Source: a virus. From it: a stretch of 22,812 bases of DNA. The stretch lies in UHGV virus genome UHGV-0339689, one strand, 5' to 3'. This document shows, one piece after another, positions 5,355-21,993 of the stretch. Numbering within the stretch: the stretch's first letter is position 1; each line of letters begins with the position of its first letter. The notes under the pieces were generated by a model. That model was not told the DNA's origin, did not search any database, and saw only the letters and a program-made list of their open reading frames with translations. A program made the translations under genes and the position numbers.

Positions 5355-6041
5355 TTAGAAGTTCAGATTTTTCAGTGCATTCAGTGCAGAGCCCACATCC
5401 TCAGCGTCGCGCAGGGACAGTGCGCCATAGCCCCCGGCCATGAATGCTTTGGCCTGGGTACGGGAGAGTCCGACATCACGCAGGACTCTTTCGATTTTTT
5501 TCTGTTCGGGGATTTCCCCGCGGGCCAGTGCGTTCTTGACGTCGCTGATCCGCGCCTCGTCGTTAGACGGGAACGTCACCAGGCTGACTTCCCAGAGGTC
5601 GATTTCTTTCAGCAGAAAGGCTTCTTTGCTCCGGTCGTATTCCCAGTCTTTCAGGACGTACCCAATAGAAAGGCCGGTTAACGAACCGGCCTTCATGTGT
5701 GCATGTGCGCGTTTTGCGAGGGGATCATCATCAATAAGCAACCGTCCCCTGACGTAAAGCCCGACATCGTCTTCCTTCATTTCGGTGTAAACACCGATGG
5801 GTTCATCCATGCGGTGCTGCCAGAGCAGCGCAGGTAACGCTTTTCTGTCACTCCACGCCCGCAGGGAAGCAGCAAATGCCCCGGACATCACCACATCATC
5901 GTGGCTGTCCTTTACACCAAAGACGGAGCCATACCCTTCAAACTCACCGGAGTCACTGACAGATTTCAGACTCAGCGGTACATCAAGACGTTGTTTCGTC
6001 TGCATTGGCGTTATCCTTCTGCTTACCGGCTTTACTGCCAT
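5355..6041 (-). CDS. Prohead protease, HK97 family
   Basis: 228-aa ORF between portal and capsid; conserved gene order; start may be the internal ATG at 6005. Confidence 0.8.
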   Translation of the reverse strand: MAVKPVSRRITPMQTKQRLDVPLSLKSVSDSGEFEGYGSVFGVKDSHDDVVMSGAFAASLRAWSDRKALPALLWQHRMDEPIGVYTEMKEDDVGLYVRGRLLIDDDPLAKRAHAHMKAGSLTGLSIGYVLKDWEYDRSKEAFLLKEIDLWEVSLVTFPSNDEARISDVKNALARGEIPEQKKIERVLRDVGLSRTQAKAFMAGGYGALSLRDAEDVGSALNALKNLNF

Positions 6042-7224
6042 CGGAGGGTTTCGTGGTCATGTTCATCGGTGTGAGATAGACATCACCACCGGGTCGTGGA
6101 TTCATATCTTCCAGGTCGCGGCAGTCATTGGGAGAGTAAATTCCCCAGTTGATCCCGGTGGCGTAGGCTTCAAAACGGGACTTCATATCCCCGCGCAGTA
6201 ACGCCCCGGCGTTAAATTTGGCGTAATAAACGCCCTGCTTACTTTTTCGTACCAGTCCGGTGTTGATCCGCTGTTCGATGCGGGTCAGATACGGCACCAG
6301 TGAATAGTTGATAAATCCCAGCCCCAGCTCTTCGATATTGTTGAAGGTGGCGCGATCGGTGTTCTGCACCATGTGCAACGGCACCCGGAACAGACGACAG
6401 ATTTCTTCAAGCTGAAACTTGCGGGTTTCCAGGAACTGGCTGTCCTCGGCGTTCAGCGCCATCGACTTCCAGTCCAGCCCCATCTCAAGGATCATCGGGC
6501 GGTGAGCATTGCCAAGCCCGGTGTGACGCTCCTCAAAATCTTTCTTCAGGCGCTCATAAGCCTGATCTGACAGCGTCTGCTCTGTACGCAACACACCCGA
6601 CGTCACCGCGCCATTGCTGAACAGTCTGGCCCCGTGCTCTTCGGTCGCTGCCGCCAGCGATATTGCCTCGCGGGCATAGGCGATGGGATTCAGCCCCACC
6701 AGTCCGTCCAGCGTCAGCGTGCGCACATGCCAGATATCCTTCTGGCTCAGTACATCCGTGGAGCCATCCGGGAATGTGACCTGATAGACCGGCTCCCAGC
6801 TACTGTTAAGCTTCGGTACCACACAGCCGGGATCGACGGGCAGCAGTTCAGCCACTTCGCCAAATGCTTTCACTTTGTAGGCGTAAAAGTTTCCCCGCAG
6901 GCACAGACAGGTGACCACCAGCTCCCAGAACTCCTGCGGCGTCATATAGCCATTGGGATGCGTGGAGATCAGCTTATGCAGACGTTCGCCAGCGGCTCTC
7001 TGCTTCAGACTGCCGTTCAGGTGATACAGGTTGCAGGGCAACATCCCGACCGACTCCGCCAGCACCCTGACACAGGAAAAAACCGCCGTCAGTCGCATGG
7101 CCCGCTGGCTGCTGATCTGCTTTCCGGTATAGGTGTCGTAGGACAACCCGATAGCATCCGCCAGCTCTGCTGGCGTGGTCACCGGTGCGTCACTTTTTCG
7201 TTGAAATAATCCCGAAAAGAACAC
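5983..7224 (-). CDS. Portal protein, HK97 family
   Basis: 413-aa ORF downstream of terminase large subunit; size and order typical. Confidence 0.9.
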   Translation of the reverse strand: MFFSGLFQRKSDAPVTTPAELADAIGLSYDTYTGKQISSQRAMRLTAVFSCVRVLAESVGMLPCNLYHLNGSLKQRAAGERLHKLISTHPNGYMTPQEFWELVVTCLCLRGNFYAYKVKAFGEVAELLPVDPGCVVPKLNSSWEPVYQVTFPDGSTDVLSQKDIWHVRTLTLDGLVGLNPIAYAREAISLAAATEEHGARLFSNGAVTSGVLRTEQTLSDQAYERLKKDFEERHTGLGNAHRPMILEMGLDWKSMALNAEDSQFLETRKFQLEEICRLFRVPLHMVQNTDRATFNNIEELGLGFINYSLVPYLTRIEQRINTGLVRKSKQGVYYAKFNAGALLRGDMKSRFEAYATGINWGIYSPNDCRDLEDMNPRPGGDVYLTPMNMTTKPSDGSKAGKQKDNANADETTS

Positions 7225-9767: not shown

Positions 9768-10118
9768 TCACTTAAGTCGTTCACGGGCCGTCTTCGCCTT
9801 ATGACACGGCCAGCACAGACTCTGCAGATTACAGTCGGCATCAGTGCCGCCATGCGCTTTAGGGATGATGTGGTCAACGGTTTTCGCCTCACGCACCACA
9901 CCAGCACGCAGACATAACTGACACAGGCCTTTGTCACGCTTCAGGACACCCGCGCGGATACTGTCCCACTTCGAACCATAACCGCGCTGATGACGGGATT
10001 GTCCTGGCTTGTATTGCTTCCAGCCCTCGCTTTTGTGGCTTTCGCAATAGCCTGACGGATCAGTCGTGGTATTGCGGCAACCGCGAAAACGGCAGGCTTT
10101 TGGGGTTCGTGGTGGCAT
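9768..10118 (-). CDS. HNH endonuclease (packaging-associated)
   Basis: 116-aa ORF with Cys-rich zinc-finger pairs and HNH-like core (CQLC...DHIIPKAHGG...CWPCH); immediately upstream of terminase. Confidence 0.85.
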   Translation of the reverse strand: MPPRTPKACRFRGCRNTTTDPSGYCESHKSEGWKQYKPGQSRHQRGYGSKWDSIRAGVLKRDKGLCQLCLRAGVVREAKTVDHIIPKAHGGTDADCNLQSLCWPCHKAKTARERLK

Positions 10119-10152
10119 TTATATCCCCTCTTTGGTGCACGCTTACAATGCG

Positions 10153-10178
10153 TAAAAAAGCCTCGCATTAGCGAGGCT
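10153..10178 (-). terminator. Rho-independent terminator
   Basis: Hairpin GCCTCGC-ATTA-GCGAGGC (10160-10177) followed on minus strand by TTTTTT. Confidence 0.6.
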
Positions 10179-10284
10179 CGTTTATATCTTGAAGGTGAAT
10201 ACTTATTGTCTTATCTATCCACGGGAAACATTAAGATTATTACACCCGTTAGTTGGGAAATAAAACAAAATGCAGGTGGTTTAT

Positions 10285-10509
10285 TTATTCTTTGCTGATT
10301 GCTTTCTGAATGGCATCGGCTAATGGTTCAATTAAGCCAATAGCTGCTTTTAATTCCTGTTCAAATTTTGCACTTGTAGCCTGACCACCTGCAGAAGAAA
10401 GTGAGGCCTTAACTAATTCAAGGGCAGCTTGAACAGCTATAACCCTCTGTTTTTGAGCTTGAGTTACAGGCTGAGCACCTATTCCTGAAGGGAAATAATT
10501 CTCTAACAT
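10285..10509 (-). CDS. Small Ala-rich hypothetical protein (74 aa), lower-GC moron
   Basis: SD GGAGGT 4 nt upstream of ATG; own terminator about 110 nt downstream; 267-bp AT-rich gap upstream. Confidence 0.5.
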   Translation of the reverse strand: MLENYFPSGIGAQPVTQAQKQRVIAVQAALELVKASLSSAGGQATSAKFEQELKAAIGLIEPLADAIQKAISKE

Positions 10510-10776
10510 TACAACCTCCGTATTAAAAAGTGAGGTTACACATTACCCTTAAGATTACTCTTAGTGAAGAGGTATCTCATAATTATCACCCTTACCAATA
10601 ACGCTTGATGAAATTTGTAATGGACTGGCTCTTATTTCAACGCAACCACTTACCGCGCGCCAGATGCTTAACCTCAAACATTAGCAATGAGATGTTTAAT
10701 CTGAATCCACTCCAGAAGTAATCACCACTCTGTCTACAGGGCCTGATGTGAAGGATGATGAGTAAAATTATCGCTA

Positions 10777-11238
10777 TCATCGAAGGCATTGCGTCCTGAT
10801 GTACTCCTGCAGGTAGTTAACCTGTGCGGTTATCCTGTCGATTCCACTTCGGAGACGGTAATAATTGAGTTCAGCATCTGCTGTAAGTCCTGGGCTTTCT
10901 CCATCGCCCATGCCGCTGGCTCTGGTCGTTGATTTTGCACAGGTGGCGGCGACTTGCAGGCGCTTACGCCCAGAAGAAACATCAGCACGGAGACTTTCGA
11001 TAGTCGCGTTAGCATCAGCAAGCTCCTTTGTGTATCTGGCGTCAAGTTCTGCTACGTCACGTTGACGCTTCTGCATATCAGAGATAGTCGCCATAGCCGA
11101 ATCTAATGCCATAGCATTCTCATCACGCTGCTTTTTGTATTCGATGGCTTTGCTGTGGTAATAATTTGCTGAACAGATAAAAGAACCAATGACAGTAACG
11201 AAGAATGCAGCGATAACCAGCTTATAGCTCAACTTCAT
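10777..11238 (-). CDS. Rz: Rz-type i-spanin
   Basis: 153 aa; N-terminal TM then coiled coil; strongly resembles remembered lambda Rz (QRDENA...DMQKRQRDVAELDARYTKELADA...). Confidence 0.85.
   Translation of the reverse strand: MKLSYKLVIAAFFVTVIGSFICSANYYHSKAIEYKKQRDENAMALDSAMATISDMQKRQRDVAELDARYTKELADANATIESLRADVSSGRKRLQVAATCAKSTTRASGMGDGESPGLTADAELNYYRLRSGIDRITAQVNYLQEYIRTQCLR
10830..11015 (-). CDS. Rz1: Rz1-type o-spanin lipoprotein embedded in Rz (+1 frame)
   Basis: MLTRLSKVSVLMFLLGVSAC lipobox signal then Pro-rich KSPPPVQNQRPEPAAW; SD AAGGAG 7 nt upstream of ATG at 11015; track ORF extends to a TTG at 11045. Confidence 0.65.
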   Translation of the reverse strand: MLTRLSKVSVLMFLLGVSACKSPPPVQNQRPEPAAWAMEKAQDLQQMLNSIITVSEVESTG

Positions 11239-11698: not shown

Positions 11699-12089
11699 TT
11701 TTCACCCCTGTCAGTCGTTCCCAGAAGTACGTCAGTGCAACCGAACCCATCGCACCACTAATCCCCGCTGTCGCGAGAATCATGTAAATACTGAATCCAC
11801 TTTCGATGCTGATCAGGCCACCAATAACACCGGTGAATCCTGATACCACTATCTGAGCCAGAGCATTTATCCAACACCACGTTGCTTTACTCTGCTTCAC
11901 ATCTATCAGGTAGCGGACCAGACCGCCCCAACCTGCGATGATCAGCAAAACGAGCCAGAACGCTCCAGCAAGATTCTCTTTTTCGTGCATATGAATAGCC
12001 GCAGTTTCGCCTCCGACAGAAAATCGGAGCGTGAAATGATATGTTGATTTATTATTAATTCGAAAATTACATTCTAATTCATCAGGCAT
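11685..12089 (-). CDS. Putative holin (start uncertain; core begins near MHEKENLAGAFWLVLLII)
   Basis: Hydrophobic segments, immediately upstream of and overlapping the endolysin gene; N-terminal 30 codons AT-rich and lacking SD. Confidence 0.6.
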   Translation of the reverse strand: MPDELECNFRINNKSTYHFTLRFSVGGETAAIHMHEKENLAGAFWLVLLIIAGWGGLVRYLIDVKQSKATWCWINALAQIVVSGFTGVIGGLISIESGFSIYMILATAGISGAMGSVALTYFWERLTGVKNAKS

Positions 12090-12107
12090 TGATGATTTTA
12101 TAATAAT

Positions 12108-12130
12108 AAAGGCCGTTCGTTACGGCCTTT
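12108..12130 (-). terminator. Hairpin, possible partial terminator after moron gene
   Basis: AAAGGCCG-TTCGTTA-CGGCCTTT followed on minus strand by ATTATTAT. Confidence 0.35.
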
Positions 12131-12141
12131 ATTATTGATAT

Positions 12142-12477
12142 TTATTTTACATCCCAAGGTAGTTCCTCAAGAGAGAAGACTAATTCATTATCAATGATTT
12201 CGTATTCTGCATAACCTTCAACCTCTCCTGAGAAGTTATTGTCAACGCATCCTTCATAATAGCTATATGGTGCTATAAAGTGAAACCCATATTCATCTAT
12301 CTCTGTGATTTCAAAATTGTAGTAATCGTAAGAATATCGAATATCATCATCAGAAATAGAACTAAGTACATAGTTATTAAATTTATCGGAATGCTTAACG
12401 ATAAGCTCTGACAACGCGTCAAGATTCTCTGGAGAGATATTTCCTAACGGTAATCTGTACTCAACGGCATTAATCAT
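12142..12477 (-). CDS. Acidic Tyr-rich hypothetical protein (111 aa), low-GC late-region moron
   Basis: SD AGGAGG 4 nt upstream of ATG; about 24 Asp+Glu versus 5 Lys+Arg; no hydrophobic segment; sits between tR' and the holin. Confidence 0.7.
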   Translation of the reverse strand: MINAVEYRLPLGNISPENLDALSELIVKHSDKFNNYVLSSISDDDIRYSYDYYNFEITEIDEYGFHFIAPYSYYEGCVDNNFSGEVEGYAEYEIIDNELVFSLEELPWDVK

Positions 12478-12530
12478 ACAACCTCCTTTTTAACTGATAT
12501 GAGGTTATATAATGTGTTTCAGTACAAGTA

Positions 12531-12556
12531 AATAAAAACCCGCTCAACAGCGGGTT
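12531..12556 (-). terminator. tR'-like intrinsic terminator downstream of late promoter
   Basis: Hairpin AACCCGC-TCAACA-GCGGGTT followed on minus strand by TTTTTATT. Confidence 0.65.
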
Positions 12557-12602
12557 CGTGAAAATTATCAACGGCAGACATACAAAGCCCATCGTTGAGA
12601 AA

Positions 12603-12631
12603 ATCTTATCCATATTTTTTGAAAAATGCAA
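12603..12631 (-). promoter_or_regulatory. Candidate late promoter PR' (minus strand -35 TTGCAT, 17 bp, -10 TAAGAT)
   Basis: Hexamers read on minus strand at 12631-12626 and 12608-12603, directly downstream of the Q stop (12663). Confidence 0.5.
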
Positions 12632-12662
12632 GCTTCATGTCGCCATCTTCGGCGAAAATCAC

Positions 12663-13415
12663 TTATCTCGTCACCTTTCTCAATTGCGTTTCAGCATATG
12701 CTTCTTCCTGCCAGCACTTTGTTACTAGTTTATCAATTACGTCTGCATATCCTTTGTACCACTGATAATCAGTCAGGTCTGGAACCAGCTTCTGGACATG
12801 ACGTCGTGCCAGTGTAGTTGGTAAACGGCTAAACCGGTTTCCATTGCAACGCCCACAAATCTTATAAACAGGCGTGCCATGAAGCCGGGTCCTTTTTTCA
12901 TCCAGGACAATACCTTTACCCTTACACCCTCTGCACGCTGTGCTGACTTCTCCCTTACCATGACAATGCTGACATAGTTCCTTCACCCACTCTTCCTTGA
13001 TAACAGATTCCCCGCTTCTGGAGTGTTTCACCACCTCGCGCAATACATTATGAAATCCAGTACCAGCACAATGCTCACAGCGAGCCTTACTTGCCGCAGA
13101 CCTGGAATAATCAGCAAAGGCAAAATTCACAAGGTAAGGAATGATCTGTAGCCGGGTTTCTTCACTCAATTTATTCAATGTCGGGTTATCCAGTGCCATC
13201 GCGTAATTGAGCAGACCTTCAATCGCAAACTGAGGATCCTGAACACCAACTTTTGCCAGGAATAAGGCAAACCCAAGCGGTGCTTTCGACTGCACCATCC
13301 CCTGCGCAGCCATCACATCCGTAATCGTTAAACCACCAGAGCCTGTCGCCGGTGCGTCATCGCTCAGTTTTGGAGATTTCGGGGAGTAATATTTCGGTAA
13401 GGCTTCAAGGTTCAT
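12663..13415 (-). CDS. Q: Late-gene antitermination protein Q (phage 82/21-type, zinc-binding)
   Basis: 250 aa with Cys clusters (CEHCAGTG, CQHCHGKG, CRGCKGKG, CGRCNG); positioned immediately upstream of PR'/tR' and lysis cassette. Confidence 0.8.
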   Translation of the reverse strand: MNLEALPKYYSPKSPKLSDDAPATGSGGLTITDVMAAQGMVQSKAPLGFALFLAKVGVQDPQFAIEGLLNYAMALDNPTLNKLSEETRLQIIPYLVNFAFADYSRSAASKARCEHCAGTGFHNVLREVVKHSRSGESVIKEEWVKELCQHCHGKGEVSTACRGCKGKGIVLDEKRTRLHGTPVYKICGRCNGNRFSRLPTTLARRHVQKLVPDLTDYQWYKGYADVIDKLVTKCWQEEAYAETQLRKVTR

Positions 13416-19186: not shown

Positions 19187-19209
19187 ATATGTACCTCCGA
19201 TGTACATAT
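19187..19209. promoter_or_regulatory. Operator palindrome ATATGTAC-N7-GTACATAT overlapping PR -10 and start site
   Basis: Perfect 8-bp inverted arms read directly in sequence. Confidence 0.6.
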
Positions 19210-19233
19210 TACATGATTGAAATGAACCTTCAA
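19206..19233 (-). promoter_or_regulatory. Candidate PR (minus strand -35 TTGAAG, 16 bp, -10 TAATAT) driving cro
   Basis: Hexamers at 19233-19228 and 19211-19206 on minus strand; about 20-nt leader with SD before cro ATG. Confidence 0.5.
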
Positions 19234-19273: not shown

Positions 19274-19948
19274 ATGAAAACAATCCATGACATCCGGCGG
19301 TCTAACGCCAGAAAACTGAGAGATGGTGTTGGCGGGAATTCTTCCTTTGCCACTATGATTGATCGCGAGCCAACCCAGACCAGCAGGTTTATGGGAGATG
19401 GTGCTACTAAAAATATCGGTGACAGCATGGCACGACACATCGAAAAATGTTTCGACCTGCCTGTCGGATGGCTCGATCAAGAACACCAGACAACGAACAT
19501 CACAAAAAAACCTGATGTTTCAATCACTAATAAACAAATCACATTAGTCCCTGTCATATCATGGGTACAGGCCGGAGCATGGAAAGAAGTTGGATATTCT
19601 GAGGTTGATTTGAGCACAGCAGAAACGTATCCCTGCCCTGTCCCCTGTGGGGAAATGACTTATATCTTGCGGGTGATAGGTGATTCAATGATTGATGAGT
19701 ACCGCCCGGGAGACATGATTTTTGTCGATCCTGAAGTACCTGCCTGCCACGGTGACGACGTTATTGCATTGATGCACGATACAGGTGAAACCACCTTCAA
19801 AAGGTTGATAGAAGATGGGACACAGCGTTATCTCAAAGCGTTAAACCCAAACTGGCCTGAGCCTTACATTAAGATCAACGGTAATTGCTCTATAATTGGT
19901 ACAGTGATTTTCTCAGGAAAACCAAGAAGATACAAAATCAAAGCCTAA
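19274..19948 (+). CDS. cI: CI-type repressor with S24 (LexA-like) autopeptidase domain
   Basis: 224 aa; Ala-Gly site (VQAGAW), catalytic Ser in GDSM and Lys in TFKRL; divergent from cro. Confidence 0.85.
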   Translation: MKTIHDIRRSNARKLRDGVGGNSSFATMIDREPTQTSRFMGDGATKNIGDSMARHIEKCFDLPVGWLDQEHQTTNITKKPDVSITNKQITLVPVISWVQAGAWKEVGYSEVDLSTAETYPCPVPCGEMTYILRVIGDSMIDEYRPGDMIFVDPEVPACHGDDVIALMHDTGETTFKRLIEDGTQRYLKALNPNWPEPYIKINGNCSIIGTVIFSGKPRRYKIKA

Positions 19949-19960
19949 TCAATGTTTATG

Positions 19961-19984
19961 AACCTGCTTCGGCAGGTTTTTTTA
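19961..19984 (+). terminator. Rho-independent terminator after cI
   Basis: AACCTGC-TTCG-GCAGGTT followed by TTTTTTT. Confidence 0.75.
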
Positions 19985-19987
19985 TAC

Positions 19988-20016
19988 TTGACAATGTACC
20001 TTTGAGATACATAATG
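19988..20016 (+). promoter_or_regulatory. Candidate PL-like promoter (-35 TTGACA, 16-17 bp, -10 CATAAT) with two TGTACC operator-like half sites
   Basis: Consensus -35 at 19988-19993; AATGTACC repeated at 19993-20000 and 20015-20022. Confidence 0.4.
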
Positions 20017-20437
20017 TACCCAAGAGAAACAACAAACAGGCAGGACGTCCACGAAGTAGCCGCCTGGGGCATATGAAGTCCAAGATGATTCGTTAGCAAC
20101 AAAACGCCCATAGGACGCTTCGCTCTTTAACAATTTGAATATTTTCAGCGTCAATGATCTGTTTAGCTCCCTACAAGTAAATGTAGCGTAGCACCATGAT
20201 AAATCCTGCTAGTGTTTAGTTAAAAATCGCGCGAGAGCAAGAACGACGTGAGGGCAGGCAATATTGATAGTGTTATTGCTATTAGTTTATCAAAAATATT
20301 TAGACGACCCAGATGAATATTTTTAATACATACTCCCCCTAATTTAACAGGAGTAAATGTTGATGAATAACGAGACATCTATACTCAACAATTGTATGAT
20401 ATGAACAATTATATAACATAATGTAGGAAAAATAAAA

Positions 20438-21034
20438 ATGGATTGGCATGACCTTATATCAAAGGTAATTATCGGACTTGTTACAGGCTCAATCGCAGCT
20501 TACTTAACTGCGCGATATGCACTCGGCCGTTATTATAAAGAAAAATGGTGGGACAAAAGAATAGATTTGTATACGCAATTAGTTGACTGTGTTTATCTTC
20601 TAAAAAACACAGCTGACTATTGGTATAAACATGAGTTACATCACGCTTCACAATTCCCAACCTACTTTAGTTACAAATCAAAAGAAGAAAATGAAATCCT
20701 TAGCAAATCTTTCTCTAATGAGCTTGAAAAACTCAGTAGAATAGGTGAGCTATCTTCATTATTCTTAACAGAAGAGTGTGGGGATAAAATCCGTTCATTC
20801 ATTGAAAATGAAGAAAATCTATTTATACAATGGGAGTTTGATAGTATAGAGTTGATAGATGCCCACAAGTCAAGACTTGATAAATTAAAAGTATTACTAG
20901 ACGATATTATCTCTGAAGCAAAGAGAGAGCTTAAGGTCAATAAAAAACATAACAGCCTAAAGAATATAAAGTGGTCCATAACTATGCCAGACCAAAAAAA
21001 TGATGAGCCAATTAATTATTACGACAATCATTAA
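20438..21034 (+). CDS. Hypothetical membrane-anchored protein (198 aa), low-GC moron; candidate phage-exclusion/defence effector
   Basis: SD AGGAAA 7 nt upstream; N-terminal TM helix (ISKVIIGLVTGSIAAYLTARYAL) then charged Lys/Glu/Asn-rich soluble domain; flanked by terminators; GC clearly below flanks by eye. Confidence 0.75.
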   Translation: MDWHDLISKVIIGLVTGSIAAYLTARYALGRYYKEKWWDKRIDLYTQLVDCVYLLKNTADYWYKHELHHASQFPTYFSYKSKEENEILSKSFSNELEKLSRIGELSSLFLTEECGDKIRSFIENEENLFIQWEFDSIELIDAHKSRLDKLKVLLDDIISEAKRELKVNKKHNSLKNIKWSITMPDQKNDEPINYYDNH

Positions 21035-21044
21035 AACACTTTAG

Positions 21045-21067
21045 AACCCGCTGGGCGGGTTTTATTC
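21045..21067 (+). terminator. Rho-independent terminator after moron
   Basis: AACCCGC-TGG-GCGGGTT followed by TTTATTC. Confidence 0.65.
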
Positions 21068-21222
21068 AAATATACTTTGCACATCACAAATAAAACTATA
21101 ACGTCCTTCTTCTTTTCCTAATATCTTATATCTACTTATTTATAAGCGGCTTACAGATCTTCAACAGATAAACCTAATGAAGGCGACAATGTTCTGATGA
21201 ATAGCCACCTTTTTACTCAACT

Positions 21223-21291
21223 GAAAGCGCGTTCTGTCCCTTGTCATTAAGTGCCAGTTCGTTAAGTCCAAAACCTCCGGAACGCGCTTTC
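21223..21291. other. Perfect 12-bp inverted repeat GAAAGCGCGTTC / GAACGCGCTTTC separated by 45 nt (candidate structured RNA or protein site)
   Basis: Arms at 21223-21234 and 21280-21291; lies in the 390-bp noncoding leader upstream of the YfdR-like gene. Confidence 0.4.
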
Positions 21292-21456
21292 AATTGAGTG
21301 GGGAAAATAACTGGCGATGGCAGCCGCCCGTTGCACTAAGTGCCTCTGGATGGGGCATTTACTGAAACGAAACCAAAACTTTTAATCGCCTTATGGCGAG
21401 GGATTCGTGCAACCAAAAATCGTGCGGTGCAGCGCACCAATTAAGGAGAACTAACG

Positions 21457-21993
21457 ATGAGTTTTATCCAGACTCTTACCGGTAAGAAGTTCAATTATAT
21501 CAACTCCACCATTGACGATATTTATATCGAGGATATCGCCGGTGCGCTTTCAAATATCTGCCGCTTCGCGGGACACTTGCCGGATTTTTACAGCGTGGCG
21601 CAGCATTCCGTTCTGTGCAGTCAACTTGTGGCGCCAGAGTTCGCCTTTGAAGCGTTAATGCATGATGCAACAGAAGCGTATTGTCAGGACATCCCCGCGC
21701 AACTGAAACGCCTTCTTCCTGACTATAAACGGATGGAAGAAAAAATAGACGCCGTAATCCGTGAGAAATACGGGTTACCCCCGGTTATGAGCACGCCCGT
21801 GAAATATGCCGATCTCATCATGCTGGCAACCGAACGCCGCGATCTCGGGCTTGATGATGGCTCTTTCTGGCCTCTACTGGAAGGTATCCCAGCAACAGAG
21901 ATGTTCAAAGTTATTCCACTGTCGCCAGGCCATGCCTACGGGATGTTTATGGAACGTTTTAACGAGTTATCGGAGTTACGCAAATGCGCATGA
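21457..21993 (+). CDS. yfdR: HD-domain phosphohydrolase, YfdR-like (5'-deoxynucleotidase family)
   Basis: 178 aa; HD motif (ALMHDATEAYCQD); SD AAGGAGA 7 nt upstream; resembles remembered CPS-53 YfdR. Confidence 0.7.
   Translation: MSFIQTLTGKKFNYINSTIDDIYIEDIAGALSNICRFAGHLPDFYSVAQHSVLCSQLVAPEFAFEALMHDATEAYCQDIPAQLKRLLPDYKRMEEKIDAVIREKYGLPPVMSTPVKYADLIMLATERRDLGLDDGSFWPLLEGIPATEMFKVIPLSPGHAYGMFMERFNELSELRKCA

Follow-up and report, generated by a model that had tools for sequence, protein, structure and literature searches.

A low-GC mobile gene cassette of an SfV/e14-type prophage encodes a predicted membrane-anchored protein of a large unnamed family, with a possible role in phage exclusion

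Introduction

The virus genome UHGV-0339689, a stretch of 22,812 nucleotides (nt) that was analyzed as a whole and is called the window below, is an SfV/e14-type lambdoid prophage of E. coli. Beside its immunity region lies one open reading frame (ORF) of 198 amino acids (aa), located at 20438-21034 on the plus strand; we refer to it as the orphan gene. This locus raises two questions: what kind of element is the orphan gene part of, and what might its product do? The original prediction, made from the DNA letters, proposed it as a candidate for a horizontally acquired, membrane-anchored exclusion or abortive-infection module. Our analysis answers the first question firmly and the second one tentatively. 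The orphan gene is the cargo of an autonomous mobile cassette, and its product is an inner-membrane-anchored, cytoplasmic four-helix-bundle protein that belongs to a large uncharacterized family; protection of the lysogen against phages is a tentative reading of its function.

The orphan gene forms an autonomous mobile cassette

The gene and the elements that accompany it are as follows.

20438-21034, plus strand: coding sequence (CDS) of the predicted membrane-anchored four-helix-bundle protein; PHROG 17948, wider family unnamed
20425-20428, plus strand: Shine-Dalgarno sequence AGGA, 9 nt before the ATG, read from the sequence
20319-21130, plus strand: core of the mobile cassette (promoter, gene, terminator, short tail); its DNA is shared, in diverged form, by a Raoultella prophage of different immunity type
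20372-20400, plus strand: candidate own sigma-70 promoter, -35 element GAGACA (20372-20377), 17-nt spacer, -10 element TATGAT (20395-20400); no repressor operator nearby
21042-21067, plus strand: own intrinsic terminator AACCCGC-TGG-GCGGGTT, then TTTTATT; -13.6 kcal/mol, z-score -3.2; conserved in the Raoultella prophage (locus L003)
20143-21208, no strand: variable segment, flanked by blocks 19950-20142 and 21209-21460, each common to many E. coli/Shigella prophages

The orphan ORF is a true gene under purifying selection, because comparison with its Raoultella orthologue (73% aa identity) gave a nonsynonymous divergence (dN) of 0.154, a synonymous divergence (dS) of 1.19 and a dN/dS of 0.13. 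The guanine-plus-cytosine (GC) content of the CDS is 0.333 and its third-position GC (GC3) is 0.307; the whole window has a GC content of 0.51, and the flanking genes have 0.45 (cI), 0.49 (HD hydrolase), 0.50, 0.53 and 0.54. The predicted gap in composition between gene and flanks is thus real, and the Shine-Dalgarno sequence and the terminator that had been assigned to the gene itself were both found. The identical protein is recorded on 666 contigs, every time under the label 'hypothetical protein'. Among the near-identical copies, P0006, P0008, P0010, P0012 and P0207, from E. coli/Shigella assemblies, carry truncations or frameshifts; decay of the prophage or a carriage cost of the gene may be the cause.

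The AT-rich upstream region had been credited with promoter-like hexamers; one site there stands out by its conservation. As a class, such hexamers are not enriched, with 8 found and 7.7 expected in shuffled sequence; therefore conservation, and not the hexamer match, is the evidence for the cassette promoter. At 20372-20400, the strings GAGACAT and GTAT[G/A]ATAT, 17 nt apart, are kept in three diverged loci while the surrounding bases diverge. In the Raoultella prophage the candidate promoter reads GAGACA-17-TATAAT.

The cassette moves between phages of different immunity. Compared to the Raoultella locus by blastn, the window aligned at 79.6% over 20319-20941; the similarity begins 119 nt before the ATG, and the alignment extends through the terminator. 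Between heteroimmune phages the orphan protein is 73% and 65% identical, whereas the adjacent repressors are only 33% and 28% identical. The variable segment is present in 16 of the 5426 complete E. coli genomes, and at least one of its flanks is present in 1536. The suggestion that low GC reflects horizontal acquisition is supported by these data, which describe an autonomous, horizontally mobile single-gene cassette in a hypervariable region next to the immunity region.

In lambdoid phages, an autonomous promoter-gene-terminator unit is known as a moron, a term defined for HK97/HK022. The orphan gene is a moron: a low-GC single-gene cassette with its own candidate promoter and its own terminator, unlike its flanks in composition, absent from related prophages that share the flanking DNA, and co-oriented with the host operon. 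No feature of the cassette conflicts with this class, which describes anatomy and is silent on function.

One further ORF was noticed in this region. It is 52 aa in length, located at 20220-20378 on the minus strand, contains a hydrophobic stretch, and is divergent from and overlapping the cassette promoter. It is probably spurious rather than an antisense or divergent small gene, because the Raoultella cassette does not conserve it and PADLOC gives no match.

The cassette lies downstream of P_L and is separated from cI

The features between the repressor gene and the cassette are as follows.

19274-19948, plus strand: cI-type repressor (LexA/S24 family, YmfK/CohE-like), a context gene; annotated as LexA family protein WP_000848748.1, cI in SfV
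19960-19986, plus strand: intrinsic terminator of cI, with an 8-bp stem, a 4-nt loop and a T-run; annotated as a terminator in SfV
19988-20015, plus strand: promoter TTGACA-16-CATAAT resembling the early-left promoter P_L, directed towards the orphan gene; 11/12 matches, the best promoter match of the region; same arrangement in the heteroimmune Raoultella prophage
19995-20031, no strand: two copies of the left operator (O_L), TGTACCTTTGAGATACA at 19995-20011 and TGTACCCAAGAGAAACA at 20015-20031, matching the motif TGTACC-N5-GGTACA of the right operator (O_R)

The minus strand of the window carries cro (ymfT), ymfL and the replication genes, and a YfdR-like HD hydrolase gene followed by further early-left genes occupies the plus strand from 21457. 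The operator motif of the repressor is TGTACC-N5-GGTACA. With at most two mismatches it occurs in the window only at 19190 and 19240 (O_R) and at 19995 and 20015; a weaker third O_R copy is located at 19223 in the cI-cro intergenic region. The sites at 19995 and 20015 overlap the P_L-like promoter, directly 3′ of the cI terminator at 19960-19979. In the SfV annotation, the label 'putative operator region' is given to the O_R region only.

The order is thus cI, terminator, P_L/O_L, about 420 nt, orphan gene. No credible small plus-strand ORF was found within the ∼420 nt that separate P_L from the orphan gene, and the P_L leader (20022-20145) showed no unusual structure (z-score +0.36). The orphan gene is the first ORF downstream of P_L/O_L and stands at the head of the early-left operon; it is not co-transcribed with cI. 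The same layout of cI, terminator, P_L/O_L and cassette is found in the Raoultella prophage, although its immunity type is different. There the terminator is at 5470-5493, P_L with two operator copies at 5571-5600, the cassette promoter at 5940-5968 and the gene at 6001-6597; the repressor is 33% identical to the cI of the window, and the operators read ACAGT-N5-ACTGT.

The original prediction had placed the gene directly downstream of cI and its terminator, in the slot used by lambda for rexAB. Both cI (19274-19948) and its terminator are where they were expected, but P_L/O_L intervenes before the gene. With the terminator, P_L at 19988-20015 and two operators between them, cI and the gene are separate, and therefore the gene is not in the rexAB position. 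RexAB needs two proteins, the sensor RexA and the polytopic membrane protein RexB. Different from RexAB, the orphan is a single gene with one transmembrane (TM) helix, no Pfam or PADLOC match to Rex, and no conserved partner. Two sources (PMC8585504, PMC7067206) describe the repressor-to-N region as a moron and defense hotspot, with rexAB and bstA as examples; like lambda RexAB and BstA of Salmonella BTP1, the orphan lies in this general hypervariable neighborhood. However, rexAB and bstA stand between cI and P_L and are co-transcribed with cI. Furthermore, BstA is described as localizing to phage DNA replication sites (PMC8585504) and not to the membrane. Pfam and PADLOC scans detected no homology between the orphan and rexAB or bstA.

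By position, lambda sieB is a better analogy than rexAB. SieB of lambda and P22 is an approximately 190-aa, membrane-associated, single-gene product that aborts infection by other phages, and its gene lies inside the early-left operon with its own promoter. Like sieB, the orphan gene is downstream of P_L, has a separate candidate promoter and encodes a small membrane-associated single-gene product; different from SieB, the orphan does not match the Pfam SieB model and is predicted to have one TM helix and a four-helix bundle.

The position also bears on the main alternative, which we consider unlikely: an accessory role of the orphan in early lytic growth or in the lysis-lysogeny decision. The protein would then be produced chiefly from P_L, once the phage has infected or been induced; it would act on a machine of the host inner membrane (for example FtsH, the divisome or a transporter) and favor phage development, a role of the kind played by lambda cIII or Kil in the early-left operon; such a function would be dispensable and therefore patchy in distribution. 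In two heteroimmune phages the first ORF after P_L/O_L is the orphan gene, and in annotated prophage loci the family gene is always co-oriented with the surrounding phage operon; both observations are in line with this alternative. However, the gene is equipped with a conserved candidate promoter and a terminator of its own, nearly all related prophages lack it, and Pfam and PHROG scans revealed no similarity to cIII, Kil or known host-takeover proteins.

In related prophages, different genes take the place of the orphan downstream of P_L: SfV orf33, which has a terminator of its own (locus L002, 3672-3968), an ECs1072-family gene with a tRNA-Arg gene (L017, 2805-3514), a 171-aa minus-strand ORFan (L018, 3714-4229), and a BRCT-domain protein with a weak match (expectation value E 2e-6) to the PADLOC candidate PDC-S48 (L019, 2372-3253). 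These loci give the impression of a hotspot rich in ORFans.

The product is a predicted single-pass membrane protein with a cytoplasmic helical bundle

The regions of the protein are as follows, with the coordinates of their codons.

20453-20524, plus strand: single TM helix (residues ∼6-29); small residues are conserved along one face (G13, G17, A21, T24, A28)
20528-20572, plus strand: juxtamembrane motif R31-Y32-Y-K-E35-K36-W37-W38-D39-K40-R41...Y45, family-defining
20918-20932, plus strand: conserved end of helix 4, A161-K-R-E-L165; A161 87%, L165 95%; a membrane-proximal placement would follow from the helix order
20939-21031, plus strand: variable, low-confidence C-terminal tail, residues 168-198; predicted local distance difference test (pLDDT) 54-59 for 171-198, poorly conserved in the alignment

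The 198-aa product had been described as one N-terminal TM helix followed by a charged soluble domain, and this description is accurate. The 19-residue Kyte-Doolittle maximum of 1.71 is located at residues 6-24, and no second hydrophobic segment is present; 61 of the 198 residues are charged (28 K+R, 33 D+E). Among 148 family members the topology is the same, with one N-terminal hydrophobic segment (median Kyte-Doolittle value 1.94) and no second one. The N-terminal flank has a median length of 6 residues and a net charge of -1, the C-terminal flank has a median charge of +3, and the C-terminal flank is the more positive one in 98% of the members; therefore, a single TM helix of N-out/C-in orientation is predicted from these sequences.

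An AlphaFold model based on a 51-sequence alignment reached a pLDDT of 89.5 and a predicted template modeling score (pTM) of 0.74; it replaced an earlier run with 8 sequences (pLDDT 63.6). In the model, one 68-residue helix comprises the TM segment and a stalk, and together with helices 82-109, 112-133 and 139-164 it forms an up-down four-helix bundle that is followed by a low-confidence tail.

Conservation was analyzed over 201 non-redundant sequences. The conserved positions fall into four groups: the small residues 13, 17, 21, 24 and 28 of the TM helix; R31, F/Y32, E35 (96%), K36, W37 (91%), W38 (98%), E39, K40, K41 and Y45, which give the family juxtamembrane motif R-F/Y-x-x-E-K-W-W-E-K-K; R101, G/S106, L108, L110 and S/T111; and A161, K162, E164 and L165 (95%). 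E35 is the only invariant polar residue. The last three groups lie where the cytoplasmic part of helix 1 begins, in the turn that joins helices 2 and 3, and where helix 4 ends; judged by the helix order, they should meet at the membrane-proximal end of the modeled bundle. No enzyme-like or transport motif is conserved across the family members aligned. As candidates we also considered the HEPN-type abortive-infection RNases (AbiD/F, AbiJ, AbiV); these were rejected since their R-x(4-6)-H motif, expected where a bundle helix starts, is missing. In the 201 members no His is conserved at the matching positions, and R31 and R101, the only Arg residues that are well conserved, both lack a conserved His 4-6 residues downstream.

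The topology is relevant to a second alternative, which we hold to be somewhat less likely still than an early lytic role: the orphan could be a lysogenic-conversion factor unrelated to phages, one that alters envelope physiology or stress tolerance of the host and benefits the lysogen. Moron anatomy and foreign composition are what such a factor would have; many lysogen-expressed prophage morons serve host fitness (PMC7067206), and the family is wide across phyla, including sites between housekeeping genes. However, with the predicted N-out/C-in topology no more than about 5 residues would protrude from the cytoplasmic side, and therefore the protein cannot be a surface or virulence factor. 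The lack of any conserved enzymatic or transport motif also argues against this alternative, as does the association of the family with phage cargo slots, and occasionally with defense genes, rather than with metabolic operons.

According to a third alternative, the orphan is a selfish membrane toxin or addiction element that is toxic when over-expressed, stabilizes the prophage or the cassette and does not serve specifically against phages. We consider it very improbable. The small-xxx-small face of the TM helix does suggest oligomerization in the membrane, truncated and frameshifted copies are frequent among the close homologues, and the N-terminus gives a weak Pfam hit to Ldr, a type I toxin (E 0.27). 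With 11.8 bits versus a threshold of 27, however, this hit falls far short, and an identity with Ldr was rejected on this score. Moreover, type I toxins are much smaller than this protein, whose conserved soluble domain is under purifying selection. No antitoxin gene or conserved antisense element was found by clustering of the loci, and the 52-aa minus-strand ORF is not conserved in the Raoultella prophage.

The protein belongs to a large unnamed family

No usable match to the orphan protein was obtained in Pfam, NCBIfam or PADLOC; at E<=10, hmmscan against Pfam-A lists only WxLIP_PGBD (E 0.015) and Ldr_toxin. PHROG 17948, a family of unknown function, matched with an E of 6.1e-95 (residues 1-185 against profile positions 1-185 of 185). 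Although full-length, this match is to a profile that lacks functional annotation and spans only a close subfamily of a much wider family. None of 51 relatives contains a Pfam domain. The view that the sequence belongs to no recognized named family was therefore correct.

Structural searches were equally unspecific. The best Foldseek hit in the PDB had an E of 0.14, and the best one in BFVD (E 4e-3) was an uncharacterized protein; in a profile search of all PDB sequences, bacterioferritin came first at chance level (E 0.036). Fold and sequence searches against solved and viral structures returned generic helical bundles only, and no specific structural relative. The profile and structure searches that had been proposed for this gene thus gave neither a named family nor a specific fold relative, and homology to a housekeeping or structural protein was looked for in them and not found.

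As judged by sequence similarity, the orphan nevertheless belongs to a large unnamed family that extends over many phyla. A word-indexed search identified 10 clusters in Escherichia, Citrobacter and Raoultella. By exhaustive profile search, 366 representatives were found at E<=1e-3, including 38 at E<=1e-10, nearly all of 150-200 aa. Scanning of one genome per species gave 86 relatives in Gamma-, Alpha- and Deltaproteobacteria, Verrucomicrobia, Planctomycetes, Gemmatimonadetes, Acidobacteria, Chloroflexi and candidate phyla radiation (CPR) bacteria, and IMG/VR contains 136 relatives. When three family members were compared by tblastn to 50,697 phage genomes, only two isolated phages, CobraSix and OS31, proved to carry relatives, and in both the gene is unannotated; no model phage among these genomes carries a family member. 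A literature search with the RefSeq accession of the orphan protein gave no match.

Family members occupy several prophage cargo slots

We analyzed the surroundings of the family genes in 63 distinct IMG/VR loci. In 16 loci, the gene is in the head module, between a Mu-F-like head gene and a scaffold/protease gene; in 15, including all the closest relatives of the window protein, it is downstream of an S24 repressor; 11 genes adjoin xis/int, where the early-left operon ends; 10 follow the lysis cassette, plus one that directly precedes the terminase; and the contexts of 10 are unlabelled. Compared to their flanks, the family genes are lower in GC in 97% of 134 loci (median difference 12 points); among the viral loci this holds for 100%. 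A terminator-like hairpin with a T-run is found within 90 nt downstream of 41% of the family genes, but of 8% of the remaining ORFs of these loci (odds ratio 7.9, p 9e-24). Clustering of the neighboring ORFs over 96 and then 152 loci revealed no conserved partner, and only lineage-specific synteny was seen.

In Enterobacter hormaechei prophages (loci L006-L009, 6567-8024), a 167-aa family member is always followed, 63 nt downstream, by a 485-aa ORF that has no Pfam or PADLOC match; the two may form a lineage-specific two-gene unit.

In other phyla, Tiamat TmtA (E 2e-83) and a type III restriction enzyme are among the neighbors, as are a Schlafen/AlbA_2-HATPase protein, a PIN_12 protein and DDE transposases. 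Some prophages contain a family member together with a PtuA/GajA-like ATPase and Kiwa.

These positions cut both ways for the early lytic accessory. In CobraSix, OS31 and 11 IMG/VR loci, relatives lie inside the early-left operon next to xis/int with short intergenic gaps, and a cytoplasmic helical domain at the membrane, as modeled, would be compatible with binding of a membrane protein. However, relatives are also found in late-operon slots (the head module, after the lysis cassette) and in non-phage islands of distant phyla, for which a function in early development offers no explanation.

A possible role in phage exclusion or abortive infection

Taking the cassette, the topology and the family distribution together, we tentatively favor the reading that the orphan is a lysogen-expressed moron product at the cytoplasmic face of the inner membrane, active in phage exclusion or abortive infection. 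In the lysogen, P_L would be repressed and the operator-free promoter of the cassette would drive expression; after induction, read-through from P_L would add to transcription of the cassette. The product would enter the inner membrane by its single N-out/C-in helix, whose small-xxx-small face probably mediates self-association, and the remainder would be a cytoplasmic up-down four-helix bundle. R31, F/Y32, E35, K36, W37, W38, Y45, R101, G/S106, A161 and L165, invariant in this scheme, would form a membrane-proximal collar, while the distal surface and the tail are variable. The variable part (bundle surface and tail) may serve as the specificity element and recognize a component or a consequence of the incoming phage; the conserved collar and the self-associating TM helix may act as the effector at the cytoplasmic membrane face. 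The outcome would be exclusion, if entry of the genome is blocked, or abortive infection, if the membrane is compromised.

In a broader and still more tentative form, this reading extends to the family as a whole. It would be a widespread single-protein anti-phage family with one N-out TM helix, an EKWWEK collar and a variable bundle, moved by temperate phages as a self-contained cassette among at least four slots and situated also in defense islands of distant phyla; its members could sense infection and act at the cytoplasmic membrane face with no partner.

Single-protein systems of comparable design are known. PdpSau of S. aureus prophages and lactococcal AbiP are abortive-infection factors that consist of an N-terminal TM anchor and a cytoplasmic domain and are encoded next to the lysis module (PMC10127798). 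Like these proteins, the orphan has an N-terminal TM anchor (about residues 6-29), and many members of its family adjoin the lysis module. However, the domain of PdpSau/AbiP is positively charged and resembles the nucleic-acid-binding oligonucleotide/oligosaccharide-binding (OB) fold, whereas that of the orphan is predicted to be an acidic four-helix bundle; in addition, PdpSau is predicted to be N-in and the orphan N-out, and there is no sequence similarity between them. P22 SieA is a prophage-expressed inner-membrane protein of 162-164 aa, with three or four TM helices and the cytoplasmic-side motif FxRYPxEAxxFNK (PMC10883804). The orphan is likewise a small prophage inner-membrane protein with a conserved cytoplasmic-side motif, but it has one TM helix, its motif is RFYxEKWWEK, the SieA motif is absent and no homology was detected. 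By analogy, rexAB/bstA, SieA and PdpSau/AbiP make a protective function plausible, yet they are not homologous to the orphan.

Several observations weigh against a protective function. In PADLOC-DB v2, the orphan has no match, and its 51 relatives match at chance level only (E >= 7e-4). The defense neighbors were seen in about 12 hand-picked loci and are anecdotal, with no statistical control, most neighbors being housekeeping genes or transposases. The alternative cargo downstream of P_L consists mostly of ORFans rather than known defense genes. A position downstream of P_L fits an early lytic function equally well, and the relatives in CobraSix and OS31 are packed inside the early-left operon. 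As for the proposed mechanism, the promoter-like hexamers occur upstream of the gene at the frequency of shuffled sequence, and the clustering of the conserved residues was deduced from the helix order and not from coordinates.

Of the module that the original prediction had proposed, the accessory gene is what our data support: low GC in 97% of the loci, an about 8-fold enrichment of terminators, at least four prophage slots, no partner and occasional defense neighbors. The defense function itself found no such support, as PADLOC, Pfam and fold searches link the protein to no known defense protein; the argument for defense is therefore drawn entirely from genomic context.

If the protein does confer phage resistance, a very small (∼0.8 kb) single-gene, membrane-based system would be added to the defense catalogue, and several hundred 50%-identity clusters, a family without an entry in Pfam, NCBIfam or PADLOC, would gain a function. 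Should the gene not serve in defense, the locus is still a clean case of a cassette that passes from one heteroimmune phage to another and keeps its candidate promoter and its terminator. ORFan morons of such kind are common, and there is no mechanistic surprise so far. The invariant juxtamembrane motif and the high-confidence model single out residues for mutagenesis. The position of the cassette is of wider use, because in SfV/e14-type prophages the hypervariable cargo slot is downstream of P_L and not between cI and P_L, which bears on predicting the cargo that is expressed in lysogens.

Other features of the window

The cassette terminator (21042-21067) sits between P_L and the early-left genes (21457 onward), and no N-like gene is evident. 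The arrangement in SfV is the same, with orf33 followed by a terminator. A second promoter within 21068-21456 is one possibility for the early-left genes beyond the cassette terminator. A near-perfect hairpin of about 26 bp was also observed.

21210-21304, plus strand: hairpin with arms at 21215-21234 and 21280-21299; -35.6 kcal/mol, z-score -4.8

It is part of the conserved block 21209-21460, a leader of 250 nt that precedes the first early-left gene in many E. coli prophages with 88-89% conservation. The hairpin may be a terminator/antiterminator element that lets P_L transcripts past the cassette terminator, or it may mark the recombination boundary of the variable slot.

The window was scanned for tRNA genes, tmRNA genes and Rfam families, and none is present. 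It contains two further low-GC islands, at 10001-10800 and 11801-12800 (GC 0.32-0.43), with small hypothetical ORFs. These ORFs are located between the lysis cassette and the HNH/terminase genes (about 10285-10789) and between a Q-like antiterminator gene and the holin gene (12142-12477). Both places are classic sites of morons as well; in other phages, the one between the lysis cassette and the HNH/terminase genes is taken by relatives of the orphan protein.

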